A model generated the notes under the pieces. It did no database searches. It saw only the letters and a list, made by a program, of their open reading frames with translations, and was not told where the DNA came from. Positions 17,127 to 56,466 of a stretch of 64,000 nt of DNA are shown in pieces. Both the position numbers and the translations under genes were made by a program. How positions within the stretch are numbered: the stretch's first letter is position 1; the number at the start of each line of letters is the position of its first letter. This DNA is from Candidatus Magasanikiibacteriota bacterium (GTDB taxonomy: Bacteria; Patescibacteriota; Patescibacteriia; Magasanikbacterales; UBA922), in assembly GCA_021648085.1 (NCBI GenBank), contig JAKITS010000001.1, positions 132,948-196,947 of the forward strand, read 5' to 3'.

Positions 17127-17215
17127 GTCATTCCTCTTAATTACAAAGCAGTCTTAGTATTTAATTCTTAGTTCTATTTTACAAACCCTGGATACCTAAT
17201 CGAGTTGAGGATGAC
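17127..17215. repeat. Family B MITE-like palindromic element (~89 nt)
   Basis: Starts 'GTCATTCCTC' and ends 'CTAATCGAGTTGAGGATGAC'. Same termini as the elements at 38730, 43473 and 56380. Confidence 0.7.
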
Positions 17216-17237
17216 AGTAAGAAAAGTTATTTTGAAT

Positions 17238-17279
17238 CGAGATCCATTCGACTCCGCTTTGCTTCGCTCAGGATGACGT
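17238..17279. repeat. Family A repeat unit (inverse orientation)
   Basis: 'CGAGATCCATTCGACTCCGCTTTGCTTCGCTCAGGATGACGT'. Confidence 0.75.
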
Positions 17280-17389
17280 GTGGAAACAAATTTACAAATT
17301 TTGGATCCCAATCAAATTAAAAATGTCAATGTTAGGTTTTTTGTTTTGTATTATGTTCTGTGTCTTTCCTTATTTAGTCTACTGTTTTC

Positions 17390-18778
17390 TTATTGCCCCA
17401 TAAATCTAATCACCAAATTCACAGTTTTTAATAAAATAGACACGTCCAAAAATATAGATCGGTTTTTTATATAAAACAAATCGTATTGAAGTTTTTGTAA
17501 TGAGCTTTCCATTGTGTCGGTATAGTTTTGGTTTATTACAGCCCAGCCAGTTAATCCGGGTTTTACGACATGTCGCAGTGAATAATATGGCATTTGTTCT
17601 TCTAGTTTTTTTGTTATTTCAGGTCTTTCTGGACGTGGTCCCACTAGTCCAATTTCTCCTTTTAGCATGTTTATTGCTTGTGGCAATTCGTCCAATCTGG
17701 TTTTTCTTAGGAATTTACCAAAACTTGTGATTCGTTTATCACCCTTTTTTGCAAAAGTAGCACCATCTATTTCGGCACTTCCATCTTTTGACAGAGCAAA
17801 CATAGATCTAAATTTGTAGATCATAAAGTGTTTTCCGAAGCGACCAATTCGTTTTTGTTTGAAAAAAACAGGCCCTTTTGATGTTGCTTTAATACCTATT
17901 GCAATAAAAGGAAGTGCTAGAGCAAATATAATAAAAATAAGTACAGCTCCAAAAAAGTCTAAAACAGTTTTAAATTTTTCATACACTGTGTTTTCATGAT
18001 GTCGGAGGTGTTGCAAAAACCAACCTTCAGAAAAAGTAAATGGAGGAATTCTACCCGTCGCAACTTCATAAAAAGATGATAAATCATTGATTTGTACTTT
18101 CCAAAAAAGCAATTCATAAAATTCGCGCATTGCATGATGATCGTCTTTTAAATTTGGAGATATTACTACTAAATGTGCATTATGATTTGTAATTGCCGGT
18201 CTTATTGTATTTAAATTGTAATAAACATCAAAAGAAAATTCAGATGATTTTATGATCTTGTTTGGCTCTATTAATCCTACAATTTTATAGCCTCTTTCTG
18301 GATTTTTTTCGAAAATATCTATTAATTCTTTTGCGTCTTTAGTATAACCAACTAAAAGAACATTTGTTTGTAGTTTTCTTATTCCAGAAAATTTTCTAAA
18401 TAAAAGTCTCCATAAAAAACTTAAACTATATCCAGTAAACACATTTAAAAGTAGTAGTGTTTTTGGAGCTATTTTTGAATTATTTATTAGGTAGAAAAAG
18501 AACACTCCAACAACTAGTGACAGTATGGCAGTCTCCACAAAACGACGATAAAAGGTTTCTTTTTTTGATATTTTAATAAGATCGTATAGACCGTTTATAT
18601 AATTGTTCAAAATCCAAATTATAAAAATAACACTAAATAGGGGTAAGTGTGATTCTATTTTTTCTAATGTGGGTAAGTGAAAGTTTCGTATTAAAAAACT
18701 TAACCAAAATCCGACCAAAAGACTTAGAATATCTCCAGAAAGTAAAATTATTTGTTTGAATCTATAAATAAAACGCAT
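17390..18778 (-). CDS. Polyprenyl-phosphate hexose-1-phosphate transferase (WbaP/WcaJ-like initiating sugar transferase)
   Basis: N-terminal TM segments. The C-terminal bacterial sugar-transferase domain matches 'KFRSMF...GLTGWAVINQ' and 'LVGPRPERPE'. Confidence 0.8.
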   Translation of the reverse strand: MRFIYRFKQIILLSGDILSLLVGFWLSFLIRNFHLPTLEKIESHLPLFSVIFIIWILNNYINGLYDLIKISKKETFYRRFVETAILSLVVGVFFFYLINNSKIAPKTLLLLNVFTGYSLSFLWRLLFRKFSGIRKLQTNVLLVGYTKDAKELIDIFEKNPERGYKIVGLIEPNKIIKSSEFSFDVYYNLNTIRPAITNHNAHLVVISPNLKDDHHAMREFYELLFWKVQINDLSSFYEVATGRIPPFTFSEGWFLQHLRHHENTVYEKFKTVLDFFGAVLIFIIFALALPFIAIGIKATSKGPVFFKQKRIGRFGKHFMIYKFRSMFALSKDGSAEIDGATFAKKGDKRITSFGKFLRKTRLDELPQAINMLKGEIGLVGPRPERPEITKKLEEQMPYYSLRHVVKPGLTGWAVINQNYTDTMESSLQKLQYDLFYIKNRSIFLDVSILLKTVNLVIRFMGQ

Positions 18779-18855
18779 GATGTTTGTTTGCTCTCAATGG
18801 TAAAATGGTATATTATATAAGTAAAGTTACTATTAGTTTATATTGAATTTATAGC

Positions 18856-22632: not shown

Positions 22633-22700
22633 GTCATTCCTTGCTTAATTAGGAATTTATGAGTCTTTAGTCATAAAATAGGAAGTGGATCCACAGTCAG
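22633..22700. repeat. Partial or divergent family B-like element
   Basis: Begins 'GTCATTCCTTGCTTAATTAGGAATTTATGAG' (family B left terminus). The right terminus is not recognisable. Confidence 0.35.
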
Positions 22701-22754
22701 GCTAAAAATGGCAAATTAGAAAGTTCTAAACTTAATTCTTATATCTTTTCCATC

Positions 22755-22920
22755 ACGTCATCCTGAGCGAAGCCGAAGGATCTCGATTTAAGATCATTAA
22801 AACACAAAATATTCATAGTTCTAATGAAATTAAATCGAGATATTTCGACTCCACTGCGTTCCGCTCAATATGACGTGAGCTTTGATTTTCAACTCCGTTT
22901 CACCCCGCTCAATATGACGT
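22755..22920. repeat. Cluster of three family A repeat units between GT2 and the DUF2304-like gene
   Basis: 22755-22785 'ACGTCATCCTGAGCGAAGCCGAAGGATCTCG'. 22836-22876 'CGAGATATTTCGACTCCACTGCGTTCCGCTCAATATGACGT'. 22893-22920 'CTCCGTTTCACCCCGCTCAATATGACGT'. Confidence 0.75.
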
Positions 22921-24812: not shown

Positions 24813-25847
24813 ATGAAGAGCTTGAGTTCATATTTTCAAACGGTTCTCAAAAAAAATGCATCAGACCTTCATCTTATTGCTGGCAAAAAACCAAGTATGC
24901 GTTTGGAGGGTAAATTGATTCATTTAAGTGAGAAAAAACTTCATCCAAAAGTTTTGAAAAAAGCTATCTTTTCTATTTTATCACCATCTCAAATAAAAAA
25001 GTTCAAAAGAACTTATGATTTGGATTTTAGCTATTCTATTAAAAACGGTAGATTTCGTATAAACTTGCACAAAAGTTTGAGCGGTTTGGGTTTGAGCGCT
25101 AGATATATTCCAAATTCTATTCCAAGTATAAAAGAGTTAAGGTTTGAGCCTTATTTAAAAGAAGCAACAAAATTGCTAGATGGTTTGGTGTTGGTGACAG
25201 GACCTACTGGTTCTGGAAAATCTACTACAATTTCTGCAATGATAGAACAAATAAACAAAACAAGAAAAGCACATATTATTACAATTGAAGATCCTATAGA
25301 ATTTGTTTTTAAAGATGATAAAAGTATAATAGAACAAAGAGAGGTTGGAGCAGATACGCCTTCTTTTGCGTCTGCTTTGAAACATGTTTTAAGACAAGAT
25401 CCAAATATTATAGTAGTTGGGGAGATGAGAGATCCAGAGACCATTGCAACAGTTTTGACAGCTGCAGAAACAGGACATCTTGTTTTTTCCACACTACATA
25501 CCCCAAGTGCCGCTGAGGCTGTAGAGCGTATTGTAGATGTGTTTGAGGGTGCAAAACAAAAGCAGATTTTGATTCAGTTTAGCTCTGTTTTGAGAGGTGT
25601 GATTTCTCAACAGCTAATTCCAGGGAAGAGTGGTAAGCGTGTAGCAGCAAGAGAAATTTTAGTAAATACACCAGCAGTTTCTAATTTAATTAGAGAAAAT
25701 AATATCTCACAACTTTATAGTTCTATTCAAACAGGTGGACGACACAAGATGATAAGTATGCGCAATTCTGTAAAGAAACTTTTAAAAGAAAAATTAATAA
25801 CAAAAGATATCGCTGAAAGGAGGGTTGGTAGATCTCGTAAGGTGTAA
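24813..25847 (+). CDS. pilT: Type IV pilus retraction ATPase PilT
   Basis: Walker A 'GPTGSGKSTT', 'AHIITIEDPIEF', 'VVGEMRD'. Length 344 aa. Confidence 0.8.
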   Translation: MKSLSSYFQTVLKKNASDLHLIAGKKPSMRLEGKLIHLSEKKLHPKVLKKAIFSILSPSQIKKFKRTYDLDFSYSIKNGRFRINLHKSLSGLGLSARYIPNSIPSIKELRFEPYLKEATKLLDGLVLVTGPTGSGKSTTISAMIEQINKTRKAHIITIEDPIEFVFKDDKSIIEQREVGADTPSFASALKHVLRQDPNIIVVGEMRDPETIATVLTAAETGHLVFSTLHTPSAAEAVERIVDVFEGAKQKQILIQFSSVLRGVISQQLIPGKSGKRVAAREILVNTPAVSNLIRENNISQLYSSIQTGGRHKMISMRNSVKKLLKEKLITKDIAERRVGRSRKV

Positions 25848-27694: not shown

Positions 27695-27766
27695 GGCCTA
27701 TTCGTCTAGTGGTTAGGACGCCGGGTTCTCATCCCGGTAAGAGGGGTTCGATTCCCCTATAGGCTA
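27695..27766 (+). tRNA. tRNA-Glu (anticodon CUC)
   Basis: Cloverleaf with acceptor GGCCTAT/ATAGGCT, anticodon arm 'CCGGG TTCTCAT CCCGG' and T-arm 'AGGGG TTCGATT CCCCT'. No encoded CCA. Confidence 0.75.
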
Positions 27767-27796
27767 CATATAGATCTATTTAAAAATAAATCTAAT

Positions 27797-27870
27797 GGCT
27801 GGGTAGCTCAGTTGGTAAGAGCGCAGGATTCATAACCCTGAGGTCGGGAGTTCGACTCTCCCCCCAGTCA
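27797..27870 (+). tRNA. tRNA with CAU anticodon (elongator Met or Ile2-lysidine type)
   Basis: 'GGCTGGGTAGCTCAGTTGGTAAGAGC' D-arm, anticodon loop 'TTCATAA', T-arm 'GGGAG TTCGACT CTCCC', G1 pairs with C72 so it is not an initiator. Confidence 0.75.
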
Positions 27871-27878
27871 CAGAGGAA

Positions 27879-27914
27879 AGCAAATTAGGCAGAATAAGCA
27901 GATTAAGTAAGTAC
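27879..27914. repeat. Motif C (~32-35 nt), copy 1 of 3
   Basis: 'AGCAAATTAGGCAGAATAAGCAGATTAAGTAAGTAC'. Matches the reverse complements of 47661-47692 (28/31) and 38862-38893. Confidence 0.55.
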
Positions 27915-27950
27915 AAAAACAAAAAAACTCCATTTGGAGTTTTTTTTGTT
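27915..27950 (+). terminator. Intrinsic terminator after the tRNAs
   Basis: 'AAAAAACTCCATTTGGAGTTTTTTTT'. Confidence 0.65.
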
Positions 27951-28103
27951 TTAAGTTTTTACTTAACTACGTAGTAGTCTTAGTTCTTAACCTCGGAGAG
28001 GTCTTGTATAGTGGGTTGCATTATAGCAATAAATCAGAATACATTATATAATATATAGTATTGATAAAATGCAATCTTATGAAAAATAATGTTGTACAAA
28101 AAT

Positions 28104-28138: not shown

Positions 28139-29161
28139 ATGATAAAAGACAAACCAAACAATAAAATAATTATATATACGGCTGACGGCGGTAATCCAAC
28201 AATTAATGTTCGTATCGAAGGAAAAACTGTATGGCTTTCACAAATTCAATTGGCTGAACTTTTTGGAACATCAAAAGCAAATATTAGCTTACATATTAAA
28301 AATATCTTTGAAGAAGGTGAATTAAGTAAAGAACCAACTGTTAAGGAATACTTAACAGTTCAAAAAGAAGGAGATAGAGATGTTTCTCGTCATATAGAAT
28401 ATTATAATCTAGACCTCATAATATCTCTTGGTTATCGGGTAAAGTCGCAAATCGCAACTCACTTTCGAAAATGGACAACAGAACGTCTTAGTGAGTATCT
28501 CGTAAAAGGTTTTACCATGGACGACGAACGACTCAAAGGTATGGGTGGAGGAAGCTTTTGGAAAGAATTACTAGATCGTATTCGTGATATCCGAAGCAGT
28601 GAAAAGGTGCTGTACCGCCAAGTGTTGGATTTGTATGCGACTAGTGTTGATTATGACCCAAATAGCTCTGAATCAATCAAGTTTTTCAAAATAGTACAAA
28701 ACAAACTTCATTATGCCACAAACAAAAATACTGCAGCTGAAACTATTTTTACACGCGCGGATGCCGAAAAAGATTTTATGGGTTTGAAAACATTTGCAGG
28801 TATATTACCAATATTGTCAGAAGTTGGGGTTGCCAAAAACTATCTTACCGAAGACGAGTTGTTTATATTAAACCGTATGGTTTCGGCTTTCTTTGATTTG
28901 GCAGAAATAAAAGCAAAAGAACAGAAAAAAATGTATATGGCAGACTGGGTGGCAGAGTTGGATAAATTTGCTGAAAATTATGGAAAGGGTGTTTTGAAAG
29001 ATGCAGGAAAAATAAGCCATAAACAAGCAGTAAAAAAAGCTCAAAAAGAATACAGACAATTTCAAGCTAAAACATTATCACCAGTTGAGGAGGCGTATTT
29101 GAAAAATATCAAAAACATACAAAAAGAGGTTGAACAAAAAACCAAGTCTTCTAAAAAATAA
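28139..29161 (+). CDS. rhuM: RhuM-family virulence/Fic-DOC-related protein
   Basis: N-terminal 'IIIYTADGGNPTINVRIEGKTVWLSQIQLAELFGTSKANISLHIKNIFEEGEL' is the hallmark RhuM block. Length 340 aa. Confidence 0.7.
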   Translation: MIKDKPNNKIIIYTADGGNPTINVRIEGKTVWLSQIQLAELFGTSKANISLHIKNIFEEGELSKEPTVKEYLTVQKEGDRDVSRHIEYYNLDLIISLGYRVKSQIATHFRKWTTERLSEYLVKGFTMDDERLKGMGGGSFWKELLDRIRDIRSSEKVLYRQVLDLYATSVDYDPNSSESIKFFKIVQNKLHYATNKNTAAETIFTRADAEKDFMGLKTFAGILPILSEVGVAKNYLTEDELFILNRMVSAFFDLAEIKAKEQKKMYMADWVAELDKFAENYGKGVLKDAGKISHKQAVKKAQKEYRQFQAKTLSPVEEAYLKNIKNIQKEVEQKTKSSKK

Positions 29162-29162
29162 T

Positions 29163-29273
29163 ATGGAAAAATTAAAAGTAAATTTAGAATCAGGGAAACA
29201 AAATCCAACATTTGAAATAATTGCGAAAATTGTTGAAGAGTTGGGGGTTGAGATTGGAGATTTAATGAAATAA
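29163..29273 (+). pseudogene. C-terminal half of an XRE-type HTH protein (36 codons), probably a gene remnant
   Basis: 'NLESGKQNPTFEIIAKIVEELGVEIGDLMK' matches helix 3 to the C-terminus of HTH_XRE ('ERGKRNPSLETLLKIAKALGVSLDEL'). The N-terminal helices are missing. It starts 1 nt after the rhuM stop and ends with the right 33-bp direct repeat. Confidence 0.45.
29241..29273. repeat. 33-bp direct repeat (right) flanking the rhuM cassette
   Basis: 'TTGGGGGTTGAGATTGGAGATTTAATGAAATAA'. Confidence 0.7.
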
Positions 29274-30087: not shown

Positions 30088-30088
30088 A

Positions 30089-43615: not shown

Positions 43616-44848
43616 ATGAATAACCCATTCAACTCAGCAATGAAACAGTTAACAAGAGCGTCGGACGCAATGAATTTAGACAAAGATATTTTGGCAGAAT
43701 TATCTTCACCAAAACGCGTGCTTACAATTTCTATTCCAGTAAAAATGGATAATGGCACTACAAAAGTTTTTGAAGGCTACAGAAGTCAATATAACAATGC
43801 TCGCGGACCTTTTAAAGGCGGAATTCGCTATCACTGGGATGTAAATATAAGTGAGGTAAAAGCACTTTCTTTTTGGATGACTCTAAAATGTGCAGTCGTT
43901 GGAATTCCTTTGGGTGGTGGAAAAGGTGGAATTATCGTAGATCCAAAAGAATTGTCCGAGCGAGAACTCGAAGAGCTTTCTCGTGGATATATTCGTGGAA
44001 TTTATAAATACCTAGGCCCAACTCAAGATGTACCAGCGCCAGATGTGTATACAAATGGAAAAATAATGTCTTGGATGCTAGACGAATATGAAAAATTGAC
44101 AGGAACTCATGCACCGGGAATGATAACAGGAAAACCACTTTCGCTTGGTGGTTCCAAAGGGCGTGACAGAGCAACTGCAAGAGGTGGATTTTTTGTACTA
44201 CAAAAAGTTTTGGCAAAAATGAATAAAAGTTTAAGCGATACTACAGTAGCAATTCAAGGTTTTGGGAATGCTGGGCAAGTAATGGCAGATTTTCTTGCAG
44301 AGCAAAATGCAAAAATTGTGGCAGTAAGCGATTCAAAAGGTGGAATTGTAAATACAGAAGGCTTGGATATTTCAGCTGTAAAAGCTCATAAAGCTAGCAC
44401 AGGAAGTGTGGTTGGTTTTGCTGGAGCAGAAGATATTTCAAACGAGGATATTTTGGAATTGAGTGTAAATGTGTTGGTGCCCGCAGCTTTGGAAGGAGTA
44501 GTTACTGCAGAAAACGCAGAGCGTATTCGCGCAAATGTAATTGTAGAATTGGCAAACGGTCCTGTGACTCCAGACGCAGATGAGATTTTACACAAAAATG
44601 GAGTTTTGTTTGTACCAGATATTTTGGCAAACGCCGGTGGTGTGACAGTGAGTTATTTTGAACAAGTTCAAAATGCAACAAATTATTATTGGGAAGAGGA
44701 AGAGGTAAACAAAAAATTGAAAAAAATAATGGACGAAGCTTTTGAATCAGTTTGGAAAGCAAAAGAAAAATACGGAGTTGATATGAGAGTCGCAGCGTTT
44801 ATTGTGGGATTGGAAAGGATTTCTGAGGCGATGGGGGATAGGGGGTAA
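43616..44848 (+). CDS. gdhA: Glutamate dehydrogenase
   Basis: 'GGGKGG' lysine-region motif, 410 aa. Confidence 0.85.
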   Translation: MNNPFNSAMKQLTRASDAMNLDKDILAELSSPKRVLTISIPVKMDNGTTKVFEGYRSQYNNARGPFKGGIRYHWDVNISEVKALSFWMTLKCAVVGIPLGGGKGGIIVDPKELSERELEELSRGYIRGIYKYLGPTQDVPAPDVYTNGKIMSWMLDEYEKLTGTHAPGMITGKPLSLGGSKGRDRATARGGFFVLQKVLAKMNKSLSDTTVAIQGFGNAGQVMADFLAEQNAKIVAVSDSKGGIVNTEGLDISAVKAHKASTGSVVGFAGAEDISNEDILELSVNVLVPAALEGVVTAENAERIRANVIVELANGPVTPDADEILHKNGVLFVPDILANAGGVTVSYFEQVQNATNYYWEEEEVNKKLKKIMDEAFESVWKAKEKYGVDMRVAAFIVGLERISEAMGDRG

Positions 44849-44865
44849 TAAAAATTAAGTTTAAA

Positions 44866-44900
44866 CAAAAAATAACCTTTTTAGGTTATTTTTTGTTTTC
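44866..44900 (+). terminator. Intrinsic terminator
   Basis: 'AAAAAATAACCTTTTTAGGTTATTTTTTGTTTT'. Confidence 0.55.
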
Positions 44901-44954: not shown

Positions 44955-47408
44955 ATGGAAAAATATAATTTTAGTAAAATAGAGAAAAAGTGGCAGGAAA
45001 AATGGGAGGAAAATAAGACTTTTGAGGTAAAACTAGATGAGAGTAAAGAGAAGTTTTATGTTCTTGTGGAGTTTCCATATCCAAGTGGAGCTGGGCTTCA
45101 TGTAGGGCATCCGCGTTCTTATACGGCAATGGATATAATTGCTCGCAAAAAGAGAATGGATGGAAAAAACGTGTTGTATCCAATTGGCTACGATGCTTTT
45201 GGTTTGCCAACAGAAAATTATGCTATAAAAACTGGGCGTGCGCCAAAAGAGGTGACAAAGGAAAATATAGCGAACTTTAGAAGACAGCTCAAATCTTTGG
45301 GTTTTAGTTTTGATTGGTCTCGTGAGATAGATACAACTGATCCAAAATATTACAAATGGACTCAGTGGATTTTCTTGCAATTGTTTAAAAACGGTTTGGC
45401 TTACAAAAAATCTATGCCAATAAACTGGTGCCCAAGTTGTAAAACTGGCTTGGCAAATGAAGAAGTTGTAAATGGGGCTTGTGAGCGTTGTGGTGGAGAG
45501 GTAGAAAAAAGAGATAAATCCCAGTGGATGCTAGCAATCACAAAATATGCGGATAAACTTCTGGATGGTTTGGAAAATGTGGATTATGTAGAGCGCGCAA
45601 AAACTCAACAAAGAAATTGGATTGGCAAAAGTGAGGGTGCATTAGTTAAGTTTGGTATTAAACAAAAGGGGGATTTTTCGGCTAGCGCTCAAGATGACAT
45701 GCTGGAAGTTTTTACAACTCGCCCAGATACTTTGTTTGGTGCAACTTATTGTGTAGTTTCGCCAGAGCATAGTTTGGTAGAGGAATTAAAAGGTAAAATA
45801 GAGAATTTTGATGAGGTTTTAGAATATATAAAGCAGGCTGGATTGAAATCTGATTTGGAGAGGGTAGAATTACAAAAAGAAAAAACAGGAGTGGAGCTAA
45901 AAGGAATAAAAGCAGTGAACCCAGCAAATAATGAAGAGATTCCAGTTTGGGTCGCGGATTATGTTTTGGCGACTTATGGAACTGGTGCAATTATGTCTGT
46001 ACCTGCTCACGATCAGAGAGATTGGGAATTTGCTGGGAAGTATGGTTTGGATATGGTAGAAGTCATTTCTGGTGGAGATATTTTGGAAGGTGCATTTTTG
46101 GGAGAAGGTGGGGTTGTAAATTCAGACTTTTTAAACGAACTGTCTTCAAAAGAATCAAAAGAAAAAATGATTGCGTGGTTAGAGGAAAAAGGATTAGGAG
46201 AAAGAAAAACAAACTTCAAACTTCGCGATTGGGTATTTTCTCGTCAGCGTTATTGGGGAGAGCCAATTCCTTTGGTTTATTGTGAAAGTTGTGCCGAGAA
46301 AGGTGATTTTCAAAATGAGGGTGAAAAGCAAAATCCAGGTTGGATTATGGATGAGAATTTACCGCTTGAATTGCCAGAAGTAGAAAAATATGAGCCAACA
46401 GACAGTGGTGAATCACCGCTTGCTAGTGTGGAAGAGTGGCTAAAAACAACTTGTCCGCGTTGTGGAGGAGAGGCTCACCGAGAAACAGACACAATGCCAA
46501 ATTGGGCAGGTTCTAGCTGGTATTCTCTAAGGTATGTGGATAATAACAATGATACAGCTTTGGCATCACCAGAAGCTTTGAAATATTGGATGCCAGTGGA
46601 TTGGTACAATGGGGGAATGGAGCACACAACTTTGCATTTGCTTTACTCTAGGTTTTGGAATATATTTTTGTATGATATTGGTGTGGTGCCACAAAGCGAA
46701 CCTTATCAAAAAAGAACAAGTCATGGAATGATTTTGGCAGAAAATGGAGAGAAAATGAGTAAAAGCCGTGGAAACGTAGTGAATCCAGATGAAATTGTAG
46801 AAAAGTTTGGTGCAGACGCACTGCGACTTTATATTATGTTTATGGGTCCATTTGACCAAGCTGTGGTTTGGGATACAAATGGTTTGAAAGGTGTAAAAAG
46901 GTTTTTGGATAAGGTTGTAAATTTACAAGAATTTGTAAAAAAAGATGTGAAACAAAATAAAACTTTACACAAAACAATTAAAAAAGTTGGTGAAGATATA
47001 GAAGAAATGAGTTTCAATACTTCTGTTGCAAAAATGATGGAATTTGTAAATGAAATTACAAAAGTACAAGAAATATCAAAAGAAGATATGGAAAATTTTC
47101 TAAAAATCCTTTCACCATTTGCACCACATTTGGCAGAAGAACTTTGGGAAAAACTTGGGAACACAGAAAGTATCGCATACGAGCTGTGGCCAAGTTATGA
47201 TGAGAATATGATAAAAGATGAAACTGTAAAAGTTGGAATTCAGATAAACGGAAAAGTTCGTGATGATATAGAAGTGCCAGCAGAAATTTCAGAAGAAGAA
47301 ATAAAAGAATTGGTATTGCAAAGAGAAAAAGTACAAAAATGGCTGGAAGGCAATGAACCAAAAAAAGTAATTTATGTAAAAGGGAGATTGGTAAGTATTG
47401 TGGTTTAA
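44955..47408 (+). CDS. leuS: Leucyl-tRNA synthetase
   Basis: 'HVGHPRSY' (HIGH) and 'KMSKS'. Length 817 aa. Confidence 0.9.
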
Positions 47409-47476
47409 AATAACTAATAATTAGTAGCTAACAAAGAACAAGAAGATTACGTTTATTTTAATTATTTATATTTTGT

Positions 47477-47636
47477 GAAATTGTAAGGGGATATTTCGAC
47501 TCCGTTTCACTTCGCTCAACATGACGTGAATATTTGTGTCATCCTTAGCGAAGTCGAAGGATCCCCCAAATTAATTCACAAAATTTTAAATATTAACAAT
47601 TCTGATGATTCTATTTCGAGAACTCTCTCTATCGCT
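47477..47636. repeat. Cluster of three family A repeat units
   Basis: 47477-47517 'GGGGATATTTCGACTCCGTTTCACTTCGCTCAACATGACGT'. 47528-47555 'GTCATCCTTAGCGAAGTCGAAGGATCCC'. 47606-47636 is a degenerate copy. Confidence 0.7.
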
Positions 47637-47660
47637 TGGGATGACATATTTAACTTCGGT

Positions 47661-47692
47661 ACTTGATCTGCATAATCTGCCTAATTTGCTGC
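47661..47692. repeat. Motif C copy (reverse orientation)
   Basis: The reverse complement 'CAGCAAATTAGGCAGATTATGCAGATCAAGTA' is 28/31 identical to 27879-27914. Confidence 0.55.
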
Positions 47693-47699
47693 CTCCGAT

Positions 47700-49190
47700 A
47701 TGCTTCAAAAAATAATAAATTCCAAAAGCAAAACGTTTCTCGCGTTTTGTTTTTGTTTTTTATTTGGGACTGCTTTTGTTTCAATTTTAGATTTTTCATT
47801 TGATTTTGTTTTCATTTATTTTGGAATTTTTGTAGTTGTTGGGTTTTTAATTATTTTTTGGAAATACAAATTTTTTAGACTTACATCACTTTGTGTTTTG
47901 GCAATTTTACTTGCATTTGGCAGGTATATTTTATTTTTTCCCAGCGAAACCAATATTTCAAATTATGCAGAAGAGAATGTTCGATTTTCTGCTATTGTAA
48001 TCCAAGAGCCAGACATTCGTGTGGATAGTGTTCGCTATGTTGTAAATGTCGAAAAAGTAGATAAAAAAGTTGGAGAAGGTAGAGTTTATTTTAAATCAGA
48101 ACTTTATCCTCGCTATGAATATGGAGATAAATTAGAAATATATTGTAAAATAAAAAAACCAACAAAAATAGAAGATTTTAATTTTGATAAATATCTTGCA
48201 CTTAAAAAAGTTTTTGCATATTGCGGTGTTCCGCAAATTCGCAAAATAGGTGAGGATGAAGGAAATATTTTAATGAGTTCTGTGCTATCGGTAAAAAATA
48301 CTTTTGCGCAAAAAATAAATCGTCTGTGGCACGAGCCAAACGCAAGTTTTGTGGCAGGATTACTTTATGGTTATCGTGGGGGTTTGGGGGAGTTGCAAGA
48401 AGATTTCAACACAACTGGCGTTACGCATATTGTCGCGATCTCTGGCTATAATATTGCAATTATTGGTGCAATTTTTATTGTAATTTTGAGCTTTCTGCGA
48501 ATCCCTCGCAAAAAAGCATTTTGGATTATTATTTCTGGGATTGGTGTTTTCGTACTTTTTGCTGGAGCTAGTGCTTCCGTAGTGCGTGCAGGAATTATGG
48601 GACTTCTGGTTTTACTCGCAAAACAGCTTGGTAGAATGTCGCATCCTATAAATTTATTGCTTTTCACTGCCGTAGCAATGGTATTACACAATCCTTATGT
48701 TCTAATTTGGGATGCAGGTTTCCAACTATCTTTTGTGGCAACCGCTGGGCTTATCTACCTCACTCCAAAATTAGAAATTTTCACAGAAAAAATTCCAGAA
48801 CTTTTTGGACTAAAAAAGATTTTTCTGGAAACTTCAGCTGCAATTATCGCAACACTTCCACTAGTTCTATTTCATTTTGGTAGATTTTCTATTGTCGCAC
48901 TTCCTACAAATATTCTCATCCTGTGGATAATTCCATTTATAATGTTGGGTGGATTTTTGGCTGTAATTTCATCTTTTATCTTTTTTCCACTTGCCCAAAT
49001 TATTTCGTGGATTACATGGATTGCACTGGAATATGTTATTCTAATTGTTAGATGGTTTGCAGATTTTTCTTTTGCATCTATAAATTTAAGTATGCCTGCA
49101 ATTGTCGTAGTTTTGTTTTATATTTGTTTAATTTTCTATAAACAAATTTATGATTATTTGGAAATTAGATGGCTTAAATTTAGAATATGA
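47700..49190 (+). CDS. comEC: ComEC/Rec2-like competence channel protein, N-terminal part (DUF4131 plus competence domain)
   Basis: Polytopic membrane protein. 'TGVTHIVAISGYNIAIIG' is the competence-domain signature. Confidence 0.7.
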   Translation: MLQKIINSKSKTFLAFCFCFLFGTAFVSILDFSFDFVFIYFGIFVVVGFLIIFWKYKFFRLTSLCVLAILLAFGRYILFFPSETNISNYAEENVRFSAIVIQEPDIRVDSVRYVVNVEKVDKKVGEGRVYFKSELYPRYEYGDKLEIYCKIKKPTKIEDFNFDKYLALKKVFAYCGVPQIRKIGEDEGNILMSSVLSVKNTFAQKINRLWHEPNASFVAGLLYGYRGGLGELQEDFNTTGVTHIVAISGYNIAIIGAIFIVILSFLRIPRKKAFWIIISGIGVFVLFAGASASVVRAGIMGLLVLLAKQLGRMSHPINLLLFTAVAMVLHNPYVLIWDAGFQLSFVATAGLIYLTPKLEIFTEKIPELFGLKKIFLETSAAIIATLPLVLFHFGRFSIVALPTNILILWIIPFIMLGGFLAVISSFIFFPLAQIISWITWIALEYVILIVRWFADFSFASINLSMPAIVVVLFYICLIFYKQIYDYLEIRWLKFRI

Positions 49191-50065
49191 AAAAGGTAAT
49201 TATAATTTTAGTTTTAATTTTGGTAGTTATTTTTGCCGCATTATTTTTTTTGAAAAAAAGAGATAACTTTTCAGAATATGTACAAGCCGAGAATTTACCA
49301 GAAGTCACAGAATTGTATTTTCTTGATGTTGGACAAGGCGATGCAACTTTTATAGAATTCAAAAATGGAACTCAAGCTTTGGTAGATTGTGGAAAGTCTG
49401 CAAAAGTTTTGGAGGAGTTGGGTAGAGTTATGGATTTTCGTGACAAAAGTATAGATTACCTAATAATCACTCACCCAGACAACGATCATTATGGTGGTTG
49501 TATAGATGTGTTGGAGAGGTTTGATGTTGCAAATGTGGTTTACAATGGTCAGCATAAAAATAACGATGAGTTTTGGAATGAATTTTGGCGACGAGTAAAA
49601 AAAGAGGGTTCAAATTATCATGTCGTAAAAAGTGAGGAAAAGTGGTTTGTAGGAGATGATGTTTTGCATTTTCTTTTTCCAGACGGTAGTTTGATTCAAA
49701 ATCTGTCAGATAACAACAATTCTATAGTTTTTATATTGGAAAGTGCTGGTAAAAAAGTTTTATTTACTGGTGATATGGAGCAAGAGTTAGAGATTTATCT
49801 AATAGAAAAATTTGGTGAAAAGCTAGGTGTGGATATTTTGAAAGTTGGTCATCATGGAAGTGGATCTTCTTCAATAGATAAATTTGTAGATATGGTTTTA
49901 CCATATTATTCTATAATTCCTGTTGGAAAAAATAAATATGGACACCCATCTTTGCGAGTAATGCGAAGACTTGAGCGGTCTGGAAGTAGGATTTTCCGCA
50001 CAGACTTACTGCATGGTGTAAAAATTTTATTGGACGAGGAATTGAGCATGGATCAGATTAAATAA
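49187..50065 (+). CDS. ComEC metallo-beta-lactamase domain, as a separate ORF
   Basis: N-terminal TM segment, 'HPDNDHYGG' (HxHxDH) and 'VGHHGS'. ATGA overlap with the upstream ORF. Confidence 0.7.
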   Translation: MKKVIIILVLILVVIFAALFFLKKRDNFSEYVQAENLPEVTELYFLDVGQGDATFIEFKNGTQALVDCGKSAKVLEELGRVMDFRDKSIDYLIITHPDNDHYGGCIDVLERFDVANVVYNGQHKNNDEFWNEFWRRVKKEGSNYHVVKSEEKWFVGDDVLHFLFPDGSLIQNLSDNNNSIVFILESAGKKVLFTGDMEQELEIYLIEKFGEKLGVDILKVGHHGSGSSSIDKFVDMVLPYYSIIPVGKNKYGHPSLRVMRRLERSGSRIFRTDLLHGVKILLDEELSMDQIK

Positions 50066-50114
50066 ACCTGTACAAATGTATCCTTTTTTGGTATATTAAA
50101 TCCTAATATCATTC

Positions 50115-50224
50115 ACGTCATATTGAGCGGAACGAAGTGGAGTCGAAATATCTCGTGTTTAGTTCATTAATTTTAGTTTTTATGATATTTTCTCGAGATC
50201 CTTCGACTTCGCTCAGGATGACGT
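50115..50224. repeat. Inverted pair of family A units separated by 38 nt
   Basis: 50115-50155 'ACGTCATATTGAGCGGAACGAAGTGGAGTCGAAATATCTCG'. 50194-50224 'CGAGATCCTTCGACTTCGCTCAGGATGACGT'. Confidence 0.8.
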
Positions 50225-50817: not shown

Positions 50818-51516
50818 ATGAAAAAAAATAAAGAAAAAATTATAGTATTATCACTTGGGGGTTCACTTATAATTCCACCAGAAGGGTTCAATAGAAAATT
50901 TCTAAAAGGTTTCAAAAAAATGATCTTGAGTCATATTGAAAAGAATTACAGATTTATAATTGTATGTGGCGGGGGAGCAACAAGTAGAAAATATCAAGAT
51001 GCGGTGAGCGATGTCACAAAACTTATTTCAGAGGATATAGATTGGATTGGAATTCATGCAACTAGATTGAATGCACATTTTGTACGAACAATTTTTCGTA
51101 AATGGGCAAATCCAAAAGTAATAAAAAATCCAACCAAAAAGATTGAATGGAAAGAAGACATTTTGATAGCTTCTGGCTGGAAACCAGGTTGGTCTACAGA
51201 TTATGATGCTGTAAAATTGGCAGAATTGTACGGAGCAGAAAAAGTTATAAACTTATCCAATATAACTTATATTTATAGCGAGGATCCAAAGAAAAATAAA
51301 GATGCTAAAAAGATAAAAGATATCACTTGGAAAAAATTTAGAAAAATTGTAGGAGACGAGTGGATTCCTGGCTCAAACCTACCTTTTGACCCAATCGCTA
51401 GCCGAGAAGCAGACAAGCTAAAATTGTCTGTAATAGTAATGAATGGAACGAAACTAAAACAAGTAGAAAAAGCAATCAAAGGCAAAAAGTTCAAAGGCTC
51501 TTTGATTCATCCATAA
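50818..51516 (+). CDS. Amino-acid-kinase family protein, archaeal-type UMP kinase-like
   Basis: 'KIIVLSLGGSLI' and 'FIIVCGGGATSRKY' resemble archaeal PyrH blocks. Confidence 0.45.
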   Translation: MKKNKEKIIVLSLGGSLIIPPEGFNRKFLKGFKKMILSHIEKNYRFIIVCGGGATSRKYQDAVSDVTKLISEDIDWIGIHATRLNAHFVRTIFRKWANPKVIKNPTKKIEWKEDILIASGWKPGWSTDYDAVKLAELYGAEKVINLSNITYIYSEDPKKNKDAKKIKDITWKKFRKIVGDEWIPGSNLPFDPIASREADKLKLSVIVMNGTKLKQVEKAIKGKKFKGSLIHP

Positions 51517-51532
51517 ATATAAATTAGTTAAA

Positions 51533-51568
51533 ACAAAAAAGAAGCAATTTAGCTTCTTTTTTGTTTTA
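51533..51568. terminator. Bidirectional intrinsic terminator
   Basis: 'AAAAAAGAAGCAATTTAGCTTCTTTTTTGTTTT'. Confidence 0.7.
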
Positions 51569-51569
51569 T

Positions 51570-52010
51570 TTATTCCTCACCCCTTATCACAATCTTCCTT
51601 CTATTTTCTTCAGCTTGTATCAAATCTATTTCAATTATATCTTTGTCGGCAATTAATTCTTGTACTTTCTCTGGCCATTCTATCAAAGTCAAAGTATCCT
51701 TTTTTCCAATATAATCTTCTGCGCCAATTTCTATCAATGCTTCCTCATCTTTCAATCTGTAAGTATCTATGTGGATAAGTTTTTTTATTCCATTTTTTTC
51801 TTTGTCCAAAGTATACACATTCATCAAAGTAAAAGTAGGACTATTTATAGTTCTTTTTATTTTTAAACCCTGCGCAATTCCTTTTACAAAAGTACTTTTC
51901 CCGGCACCCAATTCACCATTTAGCAAGATAATATCTCCGCCTTTTAATTCTTTTACTAAATTTTTTCCAACTTCTTCTGTTTCTGTTGGTGAATTGGTTA
52001 TAAATTCCAT
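51570..52010 (-). CDS. tsaE: tRNA threonylcarbamoyladenosine biosynthesis ATPase TsaE
   Basis: 'ILLNGELGAGKSTFVKGIAQGL' P-loop, 146 aa. Confidence 0.8.
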   Translation of the reverse strand: MEFITNSPTETEEVGKNLVKELKGGDIILLNGELGAGKSTFVKGIAQGLKIKRTINSPTFTLMNVYTLDKEKNGIKKLIHIDTYRLKDEEALIEIGAEDYIGKKDTLTLIEWPEKVQELIADKDIIEIDLIQAEENRRKIVIRGEE

Positions 52011-54653: not shown

Positions 54654-54654
54654 A

Positions 54655-54688
54655 AGCAAAACCATCTCAATTGAGATGGTTTTTTTAT
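54655..54688. terminator. Bidirectional intrinsic terminator
   Basis: 'AAAACCATCTCAATTGAGATGGTTTTTTTATTT'. Confidence 0.7.
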
Positions 54689-56329
54689 TTAAATTTTCCT
54701 CACCATATAAGTACCAACTTTTCGATACCCTAATTTTCTATAATATCCTCTTACTCCAACTCCAGAAATTACAGCCATTTTTTTGTAGCCTTCTTTTTTT
54801 GCAATTTTTTCTGCTTCAACCATTAATTTTTTACCAGTTCCTTTGTGTTGTGCTGCATTTTTCTTGTATTTACCAATTCCCACAAGTTGTCCGTAAGTAT
54901 GAAGCTCTCGTACAAAAGCACAATTTTTTATTTCTGGGAGTAATTTATAAACTCCTATTTTTTTCGGAGTTTTTTCTGGAATTCTAAGTCTCAAAAATCC
55001 AAACAAAGCTTCGCGGTTTTTGGTTTCATAACTTATAAAGTATTCTTTCCCACCAACTGTTTCATACATTTCCACAAATAGGTGGGGAGGTTCATTTGCA
55101 AGTTCTTTGTGTCTGCCAATTTCGCGACAACGCAAACATACACATTTTTCACCTTTTTCTGCCATTTTTTCTTTTAGCATTTCTCGTAGATTTGTAGTGG
55201 AGTTTCCTGCTGTGATTTCTGTACTTGGAATATCGCGAATCAATCTAGAAATTCTACAATAAAGCGGAGTGGCAATTTTCATTTTTATCAAAGACTCAAA
55301 CAAATCTTTTGGATTCTGTGGTTTATATTTTTTATTTTTGTACCATTTATAAAGCTCTGTATTTTTCAAAACTGCGCAAGGATAAATCTTTACCATATCT
55401 GGTCGCAGTGCCTCGTCTACAAACAAACTCTTGTACATCTCTACATCGTGCTGCGGGCTAGATCCAGGCAAGTCTGGCATAAAGTGTAGATCTACTTTAA
55501 AACCAGCTTGTCTTAGTAAAAACATGGCTTTTTTGAATTGCTCTACTGTGTGTCCGCGCTTTGTAAGCTCCAAAATTTTATCGTCTGGTGCTTGAAGTCC
55601 AAGCTCAATTCTAGTGCAACCTTGCCTACGCATATGGAAAATTGTTTTTGGTGTAATTGTGTCTGGGCGTGTTTCCAAAGTTAACCCAATTATTCTAAAT
55701 TTTGCTTTTTCATTTTTCCTTTGTTCTTTTTCTAGTGCTTCTTGAAGTTCTTCTAAGGTTGAATCTAAACTAACCTTCTCCTTCTTAGGTTTTCCATATT
55801 CATTACACGCGCGAAAAGATTCCAAAATAAACCAATATTGATATTTTATTTGGTAAGCATTCCAAGTTCCGCCTTTAATTATAAATTCAATTTTATCTGC
55901 AATATGTCCACTTTCTGTTAAAGCTTCAATTCTTCTACGCATTTGCTCGTAAGGACTAAAGTCCAAAAGTAGAGCTCTTGCTGCTGCAGGTTCAGATGCA
56001 AGATAACTTTTTGGCATTCGCTTTTCTGTTGGGCAATATATGCATTTTCCTGGACAACTATATGGTTTTACAAGTGAGGTCACAACGGCAATTCCAGACA
56101 AACTGCGAATATCTGCTTTTCGCATAAAAAGTTCTAAATTCTTATCTTTTTTTATTTTCTTTTTTTCAACCAATTCTCTATAAACAGCAAAAAGCAACCT
56201 ATTTGAAGGTTGTTTTAGTTTCATTTTTCCTGCAATTATTCTTTTGGCATCATCTACTCCAAATTTGTGTTGCGGTTTTTTTGAAATTATAAATCTTAAT
56301 ATTTTTTCCAATTCTTTCTTTGTGTGCAT
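54689..56329 (-). CDS. elp3: Elp3-like radical SAM / GNAT acetyltransferase (tRNA U34 carboxymethyl modification homolog)
   Basis: 'CPGKCIYCP' (Cx4Cx2C radical SAM cluster) and C-terminal GNAT 'HKGTGKKLMVEAEKIAKKEGYKKMAV'. Confidence 0.8.
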   Translation of the reverse strand: MHTKKELEKILRFIISKKPQHKFGVDDAKRIIAGKMKLKQPSNRLLFAVYRELVEKKKIKKDKNLELFMRKADIRSLSGIAVVTSLVKPYSCPGKCIYCPTEKRMPKSYLASEPAAARALLLDFSPYEQMRRRIEALTESGHIADKIEFIIKGGTWNAYQIKYQYWFILESFRACNEYGKPKKEKVSLDSTLEELQEALEKEQRKNEKAKFRIIGLTLETRPDTITPKTIFHMRRQGCTRIELGLQAPDDKILELTKRGHTVEQFKKAMFLLRQAGFKVDLHFMPDLPGSSPQHDVEMYKSLFVDEALRPDMVKIYPCAVLKNTELYKWYKNKKYKPQNPKDLFESLIKMKIATPLYCRISRLIRDIPSTEITAGNSTTNLREMLKEKMAEKGEKCVCLRCREIGRHKELANEPPHLFVEMYETVGGKEYFISYETKNREALFGFLRLRIPEKTPKKIGVYKLLPEIKNCAFVRELHTYGQLVGIGKYKKNAAQHKGTGKKLMVEAEKIAKKEGYKKMAVISGVGVRGYYRKLGYRKVGTYMVRKI

Positions 56330-56379
56330 ATTTGAGAAGTTCTAATTGTTATATCGTTTCGCTTGTTTTTTGCCTTGTT

Positions 56380-56466
56380 GTCATTCTCAGCTTGACTGGG
56401 AATCCAGAGTCTGCAAACCAGAATGTTGAATCAAATCCTGGACCCCCAATCAAGTTGAGGATGACG
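56380..56466. repeat. Family B MITE-like element (87 nt)
   Basis: 'GTCATTCTCAGCTTGACTGGGAATCCAGAGTCTGCAAACCAG...GGACCCCCAATCAAGTTGAGGATGACG'. Confidence 0.75.

Follow-up and report, generated by a model that had tools for sequence, protein, structure and literature searches.

CGTC-tagged hairpin dimers in a Patescibacteria genome, probable gene-less relatives of the repeats flanking the GIY-YIG nuclease Ssn

The DNA considered here is a 64-kb stretch (the window) from Candidatus Magasanikiibacteriota, a member of the CPR/Patescibacteria. These bacteria, whose genomes are very small, are believed to rely on taking up DNA. Genes for ComEC, a PilB-like ATPase and RadC are present in the window. 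A dispersed repeat, family B, is represented there by two intact dimers, two half-decayed ones, one decayed dimer and one lone arm relic (Table 1), which makes five dimers, with spacers of ~30-41 nt, and about 11 arms counted in 64 kb. Every copy is intergenic. The 43473-43559 dimer precedes the glutamate dehydrogenase gene (43616-44848) by 57 nt, and the 56380-56466 dimer has as neighbours a PALP-enzyme gene (56512-57390, -) and an Elp3-like radical-SAM/GNAT gene (54689-56329, -). Just GTCATTCCTC remains of the left arm of the 17127-17215 dimer. The spacers of different dimers are weakly similar to each other, which weakens the case for the dimer as a whole being what is copied.

Table 1. Family-B copies and family-A units in the window
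Feature	Position	Strand	Description
Intact dimer	43473-43559	.	two arms and an AT-rich spacer of ~35 nt
Left arm	43473-43498	+	tGTC-ATCCTCAA-CTCGA-TTGGGGAT-CCA
Right arm	43534-43559	-	tGTC-ATTCCCGA-CTTGA-TCGGGAAT-CCA
Intact dimer	56380-56466	.	two arms
Left arm	56380-56405	+	tGTC-ATTCTCAG-CTTGA-CTGGGAAT-CCA
Right arm	56440-56465	-	cGTC-ATCCTCAA-CTTGA-TTGGGGGT-CCA
Half-decayed dimer	38730-38825	.	divergent truB / methyltransferase promoter region
Left arm	38747-38770	+	just AACTCGATTGGTGATCGAG left, degenerate GTCATATTTT tip before it; nhmmer E 0.05
Right arm	38799-38824	-	tGTC-ATTCTCAA-CTTGA-CTAGGAAT-CCA; 2 mismatches break the stem
Half-decayed dimer	17127-17215	.	between convergent genes, directly after an intrinsic terminator (17083-17110)
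Right arm	17190-17215	-	tGTC-ATCCTCAA-CTCGA-TTAGGTAT-CCA; stem broken
Decayed dimer relic	22633-22712	.	two weak paired relic arms
Left relic arm	22633-22656	+	GTCATTCCTTGCTTAATTAGGAAT; nhmmer E 2.3, weak
Right relic arm	22686-22710	-	CATTTTTAGCCTGACTGTGGATCCA on the minus strand; nhmmer E 3.4, weak
Lone arm relic	17296-17328	-	GACATTTTTAATTTGATTGGGATCCAAAA; 17 nt past the family-A unit; nhmmer 17296-17318, E 0.94, weak
Family-A unit	17238-17279	-	aCGTCATCCTGAGCGAAGC...GGATCTCG; abuts the 17.1-kb dimer
Further family-A units	about 22753-22920, 39854-39914, 43229-43434, 47449-47586, 50113-50224, 59470-59511, 63186-63325

The existence of a repeat family of about 87 nt, proposed in a first-pass annotation, is borne out by several searches. 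The 26-mer GTCATCCTCAACTCGATTGGGGATCC, with up to two mismatches, matches at 43473(+), 17215(-) and 56465(-) against 0.00 expected, and a degenerate 20-mer finds seven arms in the window for 0.04 expected. With a profile built from the arms, nhmmer retrieves six strong arms in the window (E 1e-10 to 5e-9) and weak relics at 38747(+), 17296-17318(-), 22633-22656(+) and 22686-22710(-). The four main copies give pairwise global alignment scores of 21.5-38.5, far above shuffled sequences (-3.7 +/- 3.9, maximum 8.5). They had all been described as full, which holds for 43473-43559 and 56380-56466, the copies at 17127-17215 and 38730-38825 being half-decayed. The possible partial copy noticed at 22633 is present too, as a whole decayed dimer, accepted solely for the correct orientation and spacing of its two weak arms. 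Family B is a dispersed, hairpin-forming, non-coding repeat family, and it is probably mobile now or was formerly.

Each arm is a small hairpin of its own: a (T/C)GTC tag, an 8-bp stem starting with AT, a 5-nt CTYGA loop and a CCA tail, the tags pointing outward and the tails inward in the dimer. The six good arms all show these elements in this order, with TGTC as the tag in five and CGTC in one (56465-), and the stem is followed by CCAG in all six. Both the GTC ahead of the palindrome and the C behind it are likewise kept in 6/6 arms, decayed ones included. In DNA folding, the 8-bp stem and 5-nt loop form in arms 43473+, 43559- and 56380+; just 6 bp pair in arm 56465-, and the stems of 17215- and 38824- are mutated and broken (-0.1 and -1.2 kcal/mol, the latter amounting to no fold). 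Only arm 43559- gives a strongly stable DNA hairpin (-7.6 kcal/mol). Since the other arms are weakened by a G-T pair or broken, some or all of the copies may be inert relics.

It had also been suggested that each copy can form a hairpin of about 85 nt. This is true of the two intact copies, with RNA z-scores of -5.6 to -6.9 and DNA z-scores of -2.3 and -4.7. The RNA form of 43473-43559 adopts a single long hairpin (-36.5 kcal/mol, z -5.6), and its DNA form a central stem together with the two arm hairpins (-13 kcal/mol). The long hairpin of 56380-56466 has an RNA z-score of -6.9 and reaches -19.7 kcal/mol as DNA (z -4.7). The long fold is partial at 38.7 kb, where z is -3.3 for one strand and +0.35 for its complement, and not significant at 17.1 kb (z about -1), because the left arms of these two copies have decayed.

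The arm design extends far beyond this genome. An exact scan with the arm pattern found at least 120 loci in species genomes across many phyla, with Campylobacterota, Bacteroidota, Patescibacteria, Nitrospirota, Proteobacteria, Verrucomicrobiota and others among the matches listed. These loci provided 137 arms, in which base pairs were scored at the positions left free by the pattern. Among these listed matches, pair 6-22 is T-A in 68 arms, C-G in 68 and otherwise composed in one; pair 10-18 is G-C in 95, A-T in 41, G-T in 1 and never A-C; pair 11-17 is A-T in 89, G-C in 37, G-T in 11 and again never A-C. GTC is preceded by T in 83 of the same 137 arms and by C in 41, and 121 carry the CCA tail. 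Such near-perfect compensatory changes support the arm stem, and the arms are independent 8-bp-stem hairpins and not the simple 26-nt terminal inverted repeats of the first description. Read on the tag strand, the free stem pairs of the listed arms include G-T 12 times and A-C never, a bias that fits a hairpin read only on that strand. Identical 26-nt arms occur in unrelated phyla among the matches listed. Close relatives also differ in whether one and the same site holds a dimer: the genome L207, whose LeuRS is 88% identical, carries behind leuS a family-B dimer absent from the window, and it is devoid of the family-A dimer found in the window at 50113-50224.

What these arms accompany elsewhere was obtained by unbiased clustering of 569 ORFs located less than 600 bp from arms. 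Among the matches listed, a single family recurs, a GIY-YIG protein of ~95 aa with a single domain, whose gene lies 0-21 bp from an arm and, in other genomes, exactly between two inverted arms. Arms of the family-B pattern flank this gene in four cases (L039, L049, L097 and L104), and three CPR lineages are found among the hosts of genes so placed. The reverse test, in which loci were fetched by the protein alone, gave 3/3 CPR genes flanked on both sides. At 65 metagenomic loci, an upstream module was found at 47, a downstream one at 44, both at 38 and neither at 12, for ~0.04 modules per flank expected by chance. Seventeen of 110 flanking modules (L127-L206) have 5-nt loops, and all 17 read CYYGA, like family B. 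The protein is 60-80% identical across phyla. In a Harrisonbacteria genome, the hairpin-ssn-hairpin unit sits inside the rpsF-ssb-rpsR operon, beside gene-less dimers with the same arms. The 64-kb window itself contains no such gene or remnant (best hmmsearch E 1.5).

This ~95-aa GIY-YIG gene has already been published as Ssn (Chenal et al. 2025, Nat Commun 16:2388; PMC11893778), with the arrangement NTS-ssnA-NTS in Neisseria. Ssn binds the hairpin solely as single-stranded DNA, on the tag strand only, and its ssDNA-only, strand-specific cleavage occurs a few nucleotides 5' of GTC; double-stranded DNA, RNA and the reverse strand are not cleaved (PMC11893778). Cleavage and binding by Nm SsnA both depend critically on the GTC preceding the palindrome and the C following it, and in Neisseria Ssn lowers the integration of transforming DNA bearing the motif (PMC11893778). 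For the arms compared here, G-T without A-C on the tag strand is at most an indirect hint of such cleavage. The published SRM search string, HGTCWYN(0-2)YYVSBRHN(0-5)WNVSBRGN(0-2)RNCYNB (PMC11893778), is a manual search aid and not a definition. It has 0 matches in the window, recognising none of the six arms, and it misses 45/110 modules flanking Ssn homologs, including 9/17 of those with 5-nt loops.

Family B is best explained, with good confidence, as inverted dimers of CGTC-tagged REPs of the CGTC-2 type, the class to which the Neisseria dRS3/NTS repeats and the Ssn-related motifs also belong. The window dimers would be gene-less kin of the hairpin-ssn-hairpin unit. They would be recognised, or would once have been recognised, by an Ssn nuclease encoded elsewhere in the genome, and several of them would be decaying under AT mutation pressure. 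Copies may spread by transposition, homing-like repair or recombination.

A bolder and more doubtful proposal is that the hairpin-ssn-hairpin unit is an active, horizontally travelling minimal mobile element, of which the gene-less CPR dimers would be the non-autonomous offspring. The ssDNA-specific GIY-YIG nuclease would then act as a transposase or homing enzyme. The 60-80% protein identity across phyla and the identical arms in unrelated phyla are compatible with this proposal, as are the Harrisonbacteria operon insertion and the same-site presence or absence of dimers. For Chenal et al., an IS-like architecture is merely a hypothesis and domestication is favoured (PMC11893778). If the proposal were true, the unit would be a GIY-YIG counterpart of REPIN-RAYT, and CGTC REPs would gain the "dedicated enzyme" said to be lacking.

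Among the alternatives to the main explanation, the one that survives best, improbable as it is, holds that the copies now serve purely as structural elements of the host, at the RNA or DNA level (mRNA 3' stabilisers, terminators, recombination or integration hot spots), maintained or just tolerated with no dedicated nuclease here. REPs have documented roles of this kind, and dRS3/NIME have proposed ones. The long hairpins show high stability as RNA, all copies are intergenic, those at 17.1 and 56.4 kb directly follow genes, and no ssn gene lies in the window. However, visible decay in three of the five copies speaks against strong selection on structure, and the 17.1-kb copy stands behind a normal terminator. 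G-T without A-C on the tag strands of both arms does not readily follow from a single transcript, since the tag strands of a dimer's two arms are opposite; Ssn is moreover inactive on RNA (PMC11893778). A structural role is compatible with the main explanation and not exclusive of it.

The classical MITE reading, in which the copies are deletion derivatives of an IS with the same 26-nt ends, moved in trans by a DDE transposase, is largely refuted and has very little probability left. The size of ~87 nt, the inverted ends, the intergenic location, the several copies and the presence or absence of dimers at the same site in related genomes had all pointed to it. No target-site duplication is found at the copy borders, however, where the best direct repeats, of 0-3 nt, fall within the distribution of random controls, and the arms are themselves hairpins with compensatory changes, a feature unnecessary for terminal inverted repeats. 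No transposase family recurs near the arms among the matches listed (at least 120 loci), no transposase was found at 16-64 kb of the window, and none of the inverted arm pairs in the window has an ORF between its arms. An IS that could be the parent, having the same ends and a transposase, was found neither near the listed arms nor in the window. The only gene-bearing unit with such ends, among the matches listed, encodes the GIY-YIG nuclease, which is not established as a transposase. Equally improbable are REPINs as known in Pseudomonas and enterobacteria, REP doublets moved by a RAYT (an IS200/IS605-like tyrosine transposase). The two inverted tagged hairpins with a spacer, which can fold together into one long hairpin and likewise have no target-site duplications, do resemble them, but the tag is (C/T)GTC and not GTAG, no RAYT or other transposase gene is flanked by CGTC repeats according to Di Nocera et al. 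(PMC3733652), and the sole recurrent neighbour among the matches listed (at least 120 loci) is the GIY-YIG gene, not a Y1 transposase.

It had been suggested that family A may form, with family B, two modules of one composite element, or may share a transposase recognition sequence with it. Both families do begin with GTCAT(C/T)C, as first noticed, and the signature common to them is of the recognition type, a (C/T)GTC tag followed by an AT-first stem. The family-A unit at 17238-17279 has the CGTC tag and an AT-starting stem like B, with a long GCGAAGY-containing loop, and family-A stems co-vary, as read from the sequences (ATCCT/AGGAT versus ATATT/AATAT). Family B clusters with A in intergenic arrays at 17.2, 22.7 and 43.3 kb. 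The co-localisation, in three of five intergenic regions, is weak: P=0.03 when the 47 intergenic regions are taken as equal, P=0.19 when they are weighted by length. The composite element is unsupported, because the B dimers at 38.7 and 56.4 kb have no A unit with them and length weighting removes the significance of the co-localisation.

With family B read as kin of the Ssn-associated repeats, the correct annotation for the window is CGTC-tagged REP dimers (Ssn-type motifs), and not a new MITE. The element type is already described and is found here in a new CPR host; both this class of repeats and Ssn genes that lie between them are now placed in the CPR/Patescibacteria. The link between repeat and GIY-YIG gene was recovered blindly and independently, which raises confidence in the published association. 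The widespread CTYGA-loop class escapes the SRM string, so that genome surveys relying on this string give counts that are too low.

Compared with known systems, REPIN-RAYT is similar in its inverted doublets of tagged hairpins, in the enzyme gene lying between two hairpins, in the recognition of a single-stranded hairpin and in the lack of target-site duplications (Bertels & Rainey 2011, PMC3116915). It differs by its GTAG tag and its HUH/Y1 transposase, in contrast to the CGTC tag and GIY-YIG nuclease of the family-B class, transposition chemistry being established for HUH enzymes and not for Ssn. Neisseria dRS3 shares with family B an ATTCCC...GGGAAT core after GTC (gonococcal example upstream of pilE; Parkhill 2000; Bentley 2007, PMC1797815). 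The family-B arms are related to dRS3, not members of it: dRS3 is ATTCCC-N8-GGGAAT, whereas the best window arm, 43559-, reads ATTCCC-GACTTGATC-GGGAAT, with N9, and the others deviate further, with ATCCTC or ATTCTC in place of ATTCCC. The clustering of units with other repeat families in intergenic regions, as for B with A, is also seen in NIME arrays, which have been called Neisseria-specific (PMC1797815). With the NTS/Ssn motifs, family B has in common an oriented hairpin with GTC upstream and C downstream, of a class flanking ~95-aa GIY-YIG genes on both sides, as re-derived here; NTS has a 4-nt loop (GCGMAVGC core) and family B a CTYGA loop, and the Ssn system further differs in that its published string misses the window arms and an ssn gene is absent from the window. 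The anatomy agrees with that of the CGTC-tagged REPs, which include Neisseria dRS3/NTS (Di Nocera, De Gregorio & Rocco 2013, BMC Genomics 14:522; PMC3733652). These are defined by a CGTC/TGTC tag, an 8-9-bp stem with A,T first, a loop of 4-5 nt and a CCA tail, and they occur mostly as extragenic inverted dimers with 20-100 bp spacers, in families of tens to thousands of units per genome (PMC3733652). Family B differs from CGTC-2 by its host, one of the Magasanikbacteria within the CPR/Patescibacteria, with 31% GC, by a T-G wobble (ATCCTCAA/TTGGGGAT) in most arms where CGTC-2 has CCCC/GGGG, and by the decay of several copies. It has the same CGTC/TGTC tag, 8-bp A,T-first stem, 5-nt loop and CCA tail, and the same inverted, extragenic dimers with no associated transposase.

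The repeats that the first-pass annotation had described as MITE-like elements with 26-nt terminal inverted repeats (family B) are real but misclassified, and they represent a known kind of element in a new host lineage. Family B very probably consists of dimers of CGTC-tagged REPs, each dimer being made of two inverted hairpin arms with their tags outward. Global alignment scores among the four copies first recognised range from 21.5 to 38.5, against -3.7 +/- 3.9 for shuffles (maximum 8.5), and the possibility that these copies would align no better than shuffled sequence is therefore set aside. With no more than two mismatches, the 26-mer is present at 43473(+), 17215(-) and 56465(-) (expected 0.00), a degenerate 20-mer recovers seven arms in the window (0.04 expected), and an nhmmer profile of the arms gives six strong matches (E 1e-10 to 5e-9), together with weak relics at 38747(+), at 17296-17318(-) and in both arms of a further copy. 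The latter had been taken for a possible partial copy starting at 22633; a repeat is indeed present, but as a whole decayed dimer. All copies are intergenic, in a window that has 31% G+C and a coding fraction of 90%, its 47 intergenic regions adding up to 6.4 kb. Rfam holds no family for the window repeats, two tRNAs being its sole matches there. Three of the five dimers are in decay, and the window copies may largely be relics.

Repeats and selected genes of the window
Feature	Position	Strand	Evidence or context
Intact family-B dimer	43473-43559		nhmmer arms and alignment
Intact family-B dimer	56380-56466		nhmmer arms and alignment
Half-decayed family-B dimer	17127-17215		
Half-decayed family-B dimer	38730-38825		
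Decayed family-B dimer	22633-22712		two weak nhmmer relic arms, 22633-22656(+) and 22686-22710(-)
Lone family-B arm relic	17296-17318	-	weak nhmmer match
Family-A repeat	22753-22920		
Family-A repeat	43229-43434		
Family-A repeat	47449-47586		
Family-A repeat	50113-50224		
Family-A repeat	63186-63325		
Further family-A repeat	17238-17279		
Further family-A repeat	39854-39914		
Further family-A repeat	59470-59511		
ComEC gene	47700-49190		
PilB-like T2SSE ATPase	24813-25847		
RadC	29440-30087		
RhuM-family protein	28139-29161		defence-type island
DUF4297-HerA pair	30089-33012		defence-type island
MutH/Sau3AI-like endonuclease	33005-34402		type II restriction-modification pair
C5 methyltransferase	34457-35704		type II restriction-modification pair

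Each supposed terminal repeat is an independent tagged hairpin with a covarying stem and fixed unpaired flanks, reading (T/C)GTC, ATYCYCRR, CTYGA, YYRGGRAT and CCA. With DNA parameters, an 8-bp stem and a 5-nt loop are obtained for the arms 43473+ (-4.0 kcal/mol), 43559- (-7.6 kcal/mol) and 56380+ (-3.9 kcal/mol); pairing is limited to 6 bp in 56465-, and the fold is lost in the arms of the half-decayed copies at 17.1 and 38.7 kb. A strongly stable DNA hairpin is found in one window arm only. As ssDNA, the 43.5-kb dimer favours a fold with both arm hairpins and a central stem, and the 56.4-kb dimer a single long hairpin. The ~85-nt hairpin initially attributed to every copy is significant in the two intact ones (z -5.6 to -6.9 as RNA, -2.3 and -4.7 as DNA), but not in the others. 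The spacers resemble one another only weakly between dimers, and their comparison favours neither a copy orientation nor the whole dimer as the copied unit.

When one genome per species was scanned for exact matches to the arm pattern GTCATYCYCRRCTYGAYYRGGNRTCC, at least 120 loci were obtained, the matches listed being spread over Campylobacterota, Bacteroidota, Patescibacteria, Nitrospirota, all proteobacterial classes, Verrucomicrobiota, Fibrobacterota, Zixibacteria and others. Many of the listed loci contain dimers with the layout GTCAT-hairpin-ATCCAG ... CTGGAT-hairpin2-ATGAC. The second hairpin frequently differs from the first in its stem or loop, which shows that each arm is a module of its own and not a mirror copy of the other. 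Covariation was scored in 137 arms from these loci, only at positions left free by the pattern, and is almost perfect at the free stem positions: T-A 68, C-G 68 and other 1 for pair 6-22; G-C 95, A-T 41, G-T 1 and A-C 0 for pair 10-18; A-T 89, G-C 37, G-T 11 and A-C 0 for pair 11-17. The arm hairpin is under structural constraint. Since G-T pairs are seen and A-C never, these sequences suggest that it is only on the tag strand that the hairpin matters, although a large part of the G-T cases belong to one sequence type and are not independent. The base 5' of GTC is T in 83 arms and C in 41, and a CCA tail is present in 121 of the 137. In an Azospirillaceae MAG (2589-3090 of locus L028), a dimer with its flank occurs as four head-to-tail copies with a 124-bp period, a tandem array and not dispersed copies.

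When the 569 ORFs situated no more than 600 bp from an arm were clustered across the 120 listed loci, the sole family recurring in at least three loci was a ~97-aa GIY-YIG protein, located 0-21 bp from the arm. In L039, L049, L097 and L104 its gene takes the position of the dimer spacer, with one arm immediately upstream and an inverted one downstream, and so does a pseudogene in the Peribacteria locus L019. The family comprises at least ~8000 clusters with PF01541 as only domain and 60-80% identity across phyla; the nearest solved structures are 1zg2 and 1ywl, two uncharacterised UPF0213 proteins. This protein corresponds to the ssDNA nuclease Ssn. A reverse test was made on loci picked by the GIY-YIG protein alone. 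All three CPR genes (Paceibacterota, a 'Patescibacteria group' MAG and Harrisonbacteria) have modules on both flanks. The Harrisonbacteria example (L125 8000-9400; GCA_002773435.1, PFBC01000024.1) is a hairpin-ssn-hairpin unit between ssb and rpsR, in the conserved rpsF-ssb-rpsR operon, with two gene-less dimers of identical arm type alongside. Of 65 metagenomic loci with sufficient flank, an upstream module is present in 47 and a downstream inverted one in 44; modules stand on both sides in 38 loci and on neither side in 12, for a chance expectation of ~0.04 module per flank (background density 0.48 modules per kb). Stems of the 110 Ssn-flanking modules are of 8 bp in 86 and 9 bp in 21, loops of 4 nt in 67 and 5 nt in 17, and tags TGTC in 91 and CGTC in 17; all 17 of the 5-nt loops read CYYGA, like family B. 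The family-B arm class is associated with Ssn genes in other genomes, CPR included. A generic 'GTCAT + hairpin' detector was uninformative in the AT-rich window (16 matches versus 15.4 in shuffles), the later one being stricter (a minimum of 7 uninterrupted bp, 3 or more of the pairs being G-C). In a Paceibacterota MAG (L015 4003-4529), a GIY-YIG gene that is less closely related (E 1e-13 against the Ssn profile) is flanked by two copies of a tRNA-like 5' sequence, GGAGAGGTCGCATAGTGG, and not by CGTC hairpins; it may represent another type of GIY-YIG insertion.

No GIY-YIG gene is found in the 64-kb window (hmmsearch best E 1.5; positive controls 1e-13 to 1e-50). An Ssn encoded elsewhere in the genome would recognise, or would once have recognised, the family-B arms, whose dimers may descend from a hairpin-ssn-hairpin unit. 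Whether such a partnership is currently functional in this genome is close to an even bet, leaning slightly to the negative. It looks rather unlikely that the hairpin-ssn-hairpin unit is active as a mobile element driven by its GIY-YIG protein and that these dimers are its non-autonomous copies. The REPIN/RAYT reading was dropped on the strength of the arm-neighbour clustering and of the CGTC-REP literature (PMC3733652), a GTAG tag and a RAYT being lacking and a GIY-YIG protein being the sole recurrent neighbour in the 120 listed loci. The MITE reading is largely rejected, with neither target-site duplications (border repeats of 0-3 nt, like random controls) nor a transposase-bearing parent IS: no transposase family recurs near the arms in the 120 listed loci, and between 16 and 64 kb of the window there is no transposase, and no recombinase apart from ordinary housekeeping and defence genes.

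Family A (aCGTCATCCTGAGCGAAGYCGAAGGATC...) occurs in inverted dimers and in small arrays. It shares with family B the CGTC tag and a stem that starts with AT. Its short stem co-varies (ATCCT/AGGAT versus ATATT/AATAT), and its long loop contains GCGAAGY, a sequence similar to the d(GCGAAGC) mini-hairpin, which is very stable. Families A and B are best regarded as two families within one superfamily, rather than as modules of a composite element as formerly suggested. The co-localisation of the two families stands as a count, three of the five family-B intergenic regions also holding family A (P=0.03 with equal regions), but loses significance when weighted by region length (P=0.19). Family-A dimers lie on both sides of the comEC/metallo-beta-lactamase-fold operon (47700-50065; window 47449-50224). 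With a DNA-uptake gene inside it, this motif-gene-motif layout may deserve attention, because Ssn motifs have a published role in modulating natural transformation.

The window LeuRS (44955-47408) is 100% identical to a Candidatus Magasanikbacteria MAG protein, the next matches being from other Magasanikbacteria and Patescibacteria. A relative with a syntenic contig (L207; LeuRS 88% identical) has a family-B dimer directly after leuS, TGTCATTTCCAGCTTGACAGGGAATCCAG...CTGGATCTCCAATCAAGTTGGGGATGACA, which is absent in the window; the family-A dimer at window 50113-50224 is missing from this contig, and the one at 47.5 kb is common to both. Dimers have thus been gained or lost on the time scale separating the two genomes, with junctions too diverged for exact borders. 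A defence-type island (28139-35704), of which RadC is a member, starts just downstream of tRNA-Glu and tRNA-Met (27695-27871). Directly downstream of the 56.4-kb dimer lies an Elp3-like protein (54689-56329, minus strand; radical SAM, Radical_SAM_C and GNAT acetyltransferase), uncommon in bacteria. AAAAAAC-stem-loop-GTTTTTTTT motifs after genes (27912-27960, 35710-35758, 44846-44899, 51514-51575; repeat families D6 and D10) have the appearance of ordinary bidirectional intrinsic terminators rather than of mobile repeats.

CGTC-tagged REPs were described by Di Nocera, De Gregorio and Rocco (2013) in five phyla, Neisseria dRS3 and Rickettsia RPE-4/-6 included, with a CGTC or TGTC tag, 8-9-bp stems starting with A,T, 4-5-nt loops, a CCA tail and no dedicated transposase, mostly as inverted dimers with 20-100-bp spacers (PMC3733652). 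Family B fits their 8-bp-stem, 5-nt-loop class CGTC-2, but differs from the strict Neisseria dRS3 (ATTCCC-N8-GGGAAT), the best window arm having N9. A gonococcal example, GTCATTCCCGCGAAAGCGGGAATCTAG ... CTGGATTCCCACTTTCGTGGGAATGAC, has an identical dimer architecture. The Neisseria NTS motif, CGTCATTCCCGCGMAVGCGGGAATCYRG, encompasses dRS3, and NTS and the related SRM hairpins flank the 94-aa single-domain GIY-YIG gene ssnA across bacteria (Chenal et al. 2025, PMC11893778). Since these authors already report the enzyme link, the repeat-GIY-YIG association found here is an independent re-discovery and not a novelty. Binding of the hairpin by purified Ssn proteins requires ssDNA and is confined to the tag strand; the proteins cut a few nt upstream and leave dsDNA and RNA untouched, and in N. 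meningitidis Ssn lowers the integration of motif-bearing transforming DNA (PMC11893778). In a lineage with ComEC, a PilB-like ATPase and RadC, the system could by analogy modulate uptake-driven recombination, as in Neisseria. The SRM search string HGTCWYN(0-2)YYVSBRHN(0-5)WNVSBRGN(0-2)RNCYNB matches none of the window arms; among modules directly flanking Ssn homologs (loci L127-L206 from other genomes) it matches 65 of 110 and misses 45, and for those with a CYYGA loop it matches 8 of 17 and misses 9. It is therefore treated as a search aid and not as a definition, and surveys built on it undercount. The determinants of N. meningitidis SsnA recognition, GTC 5' of the palindrome and C 3' of it, are both kept in 6/6 window arms.
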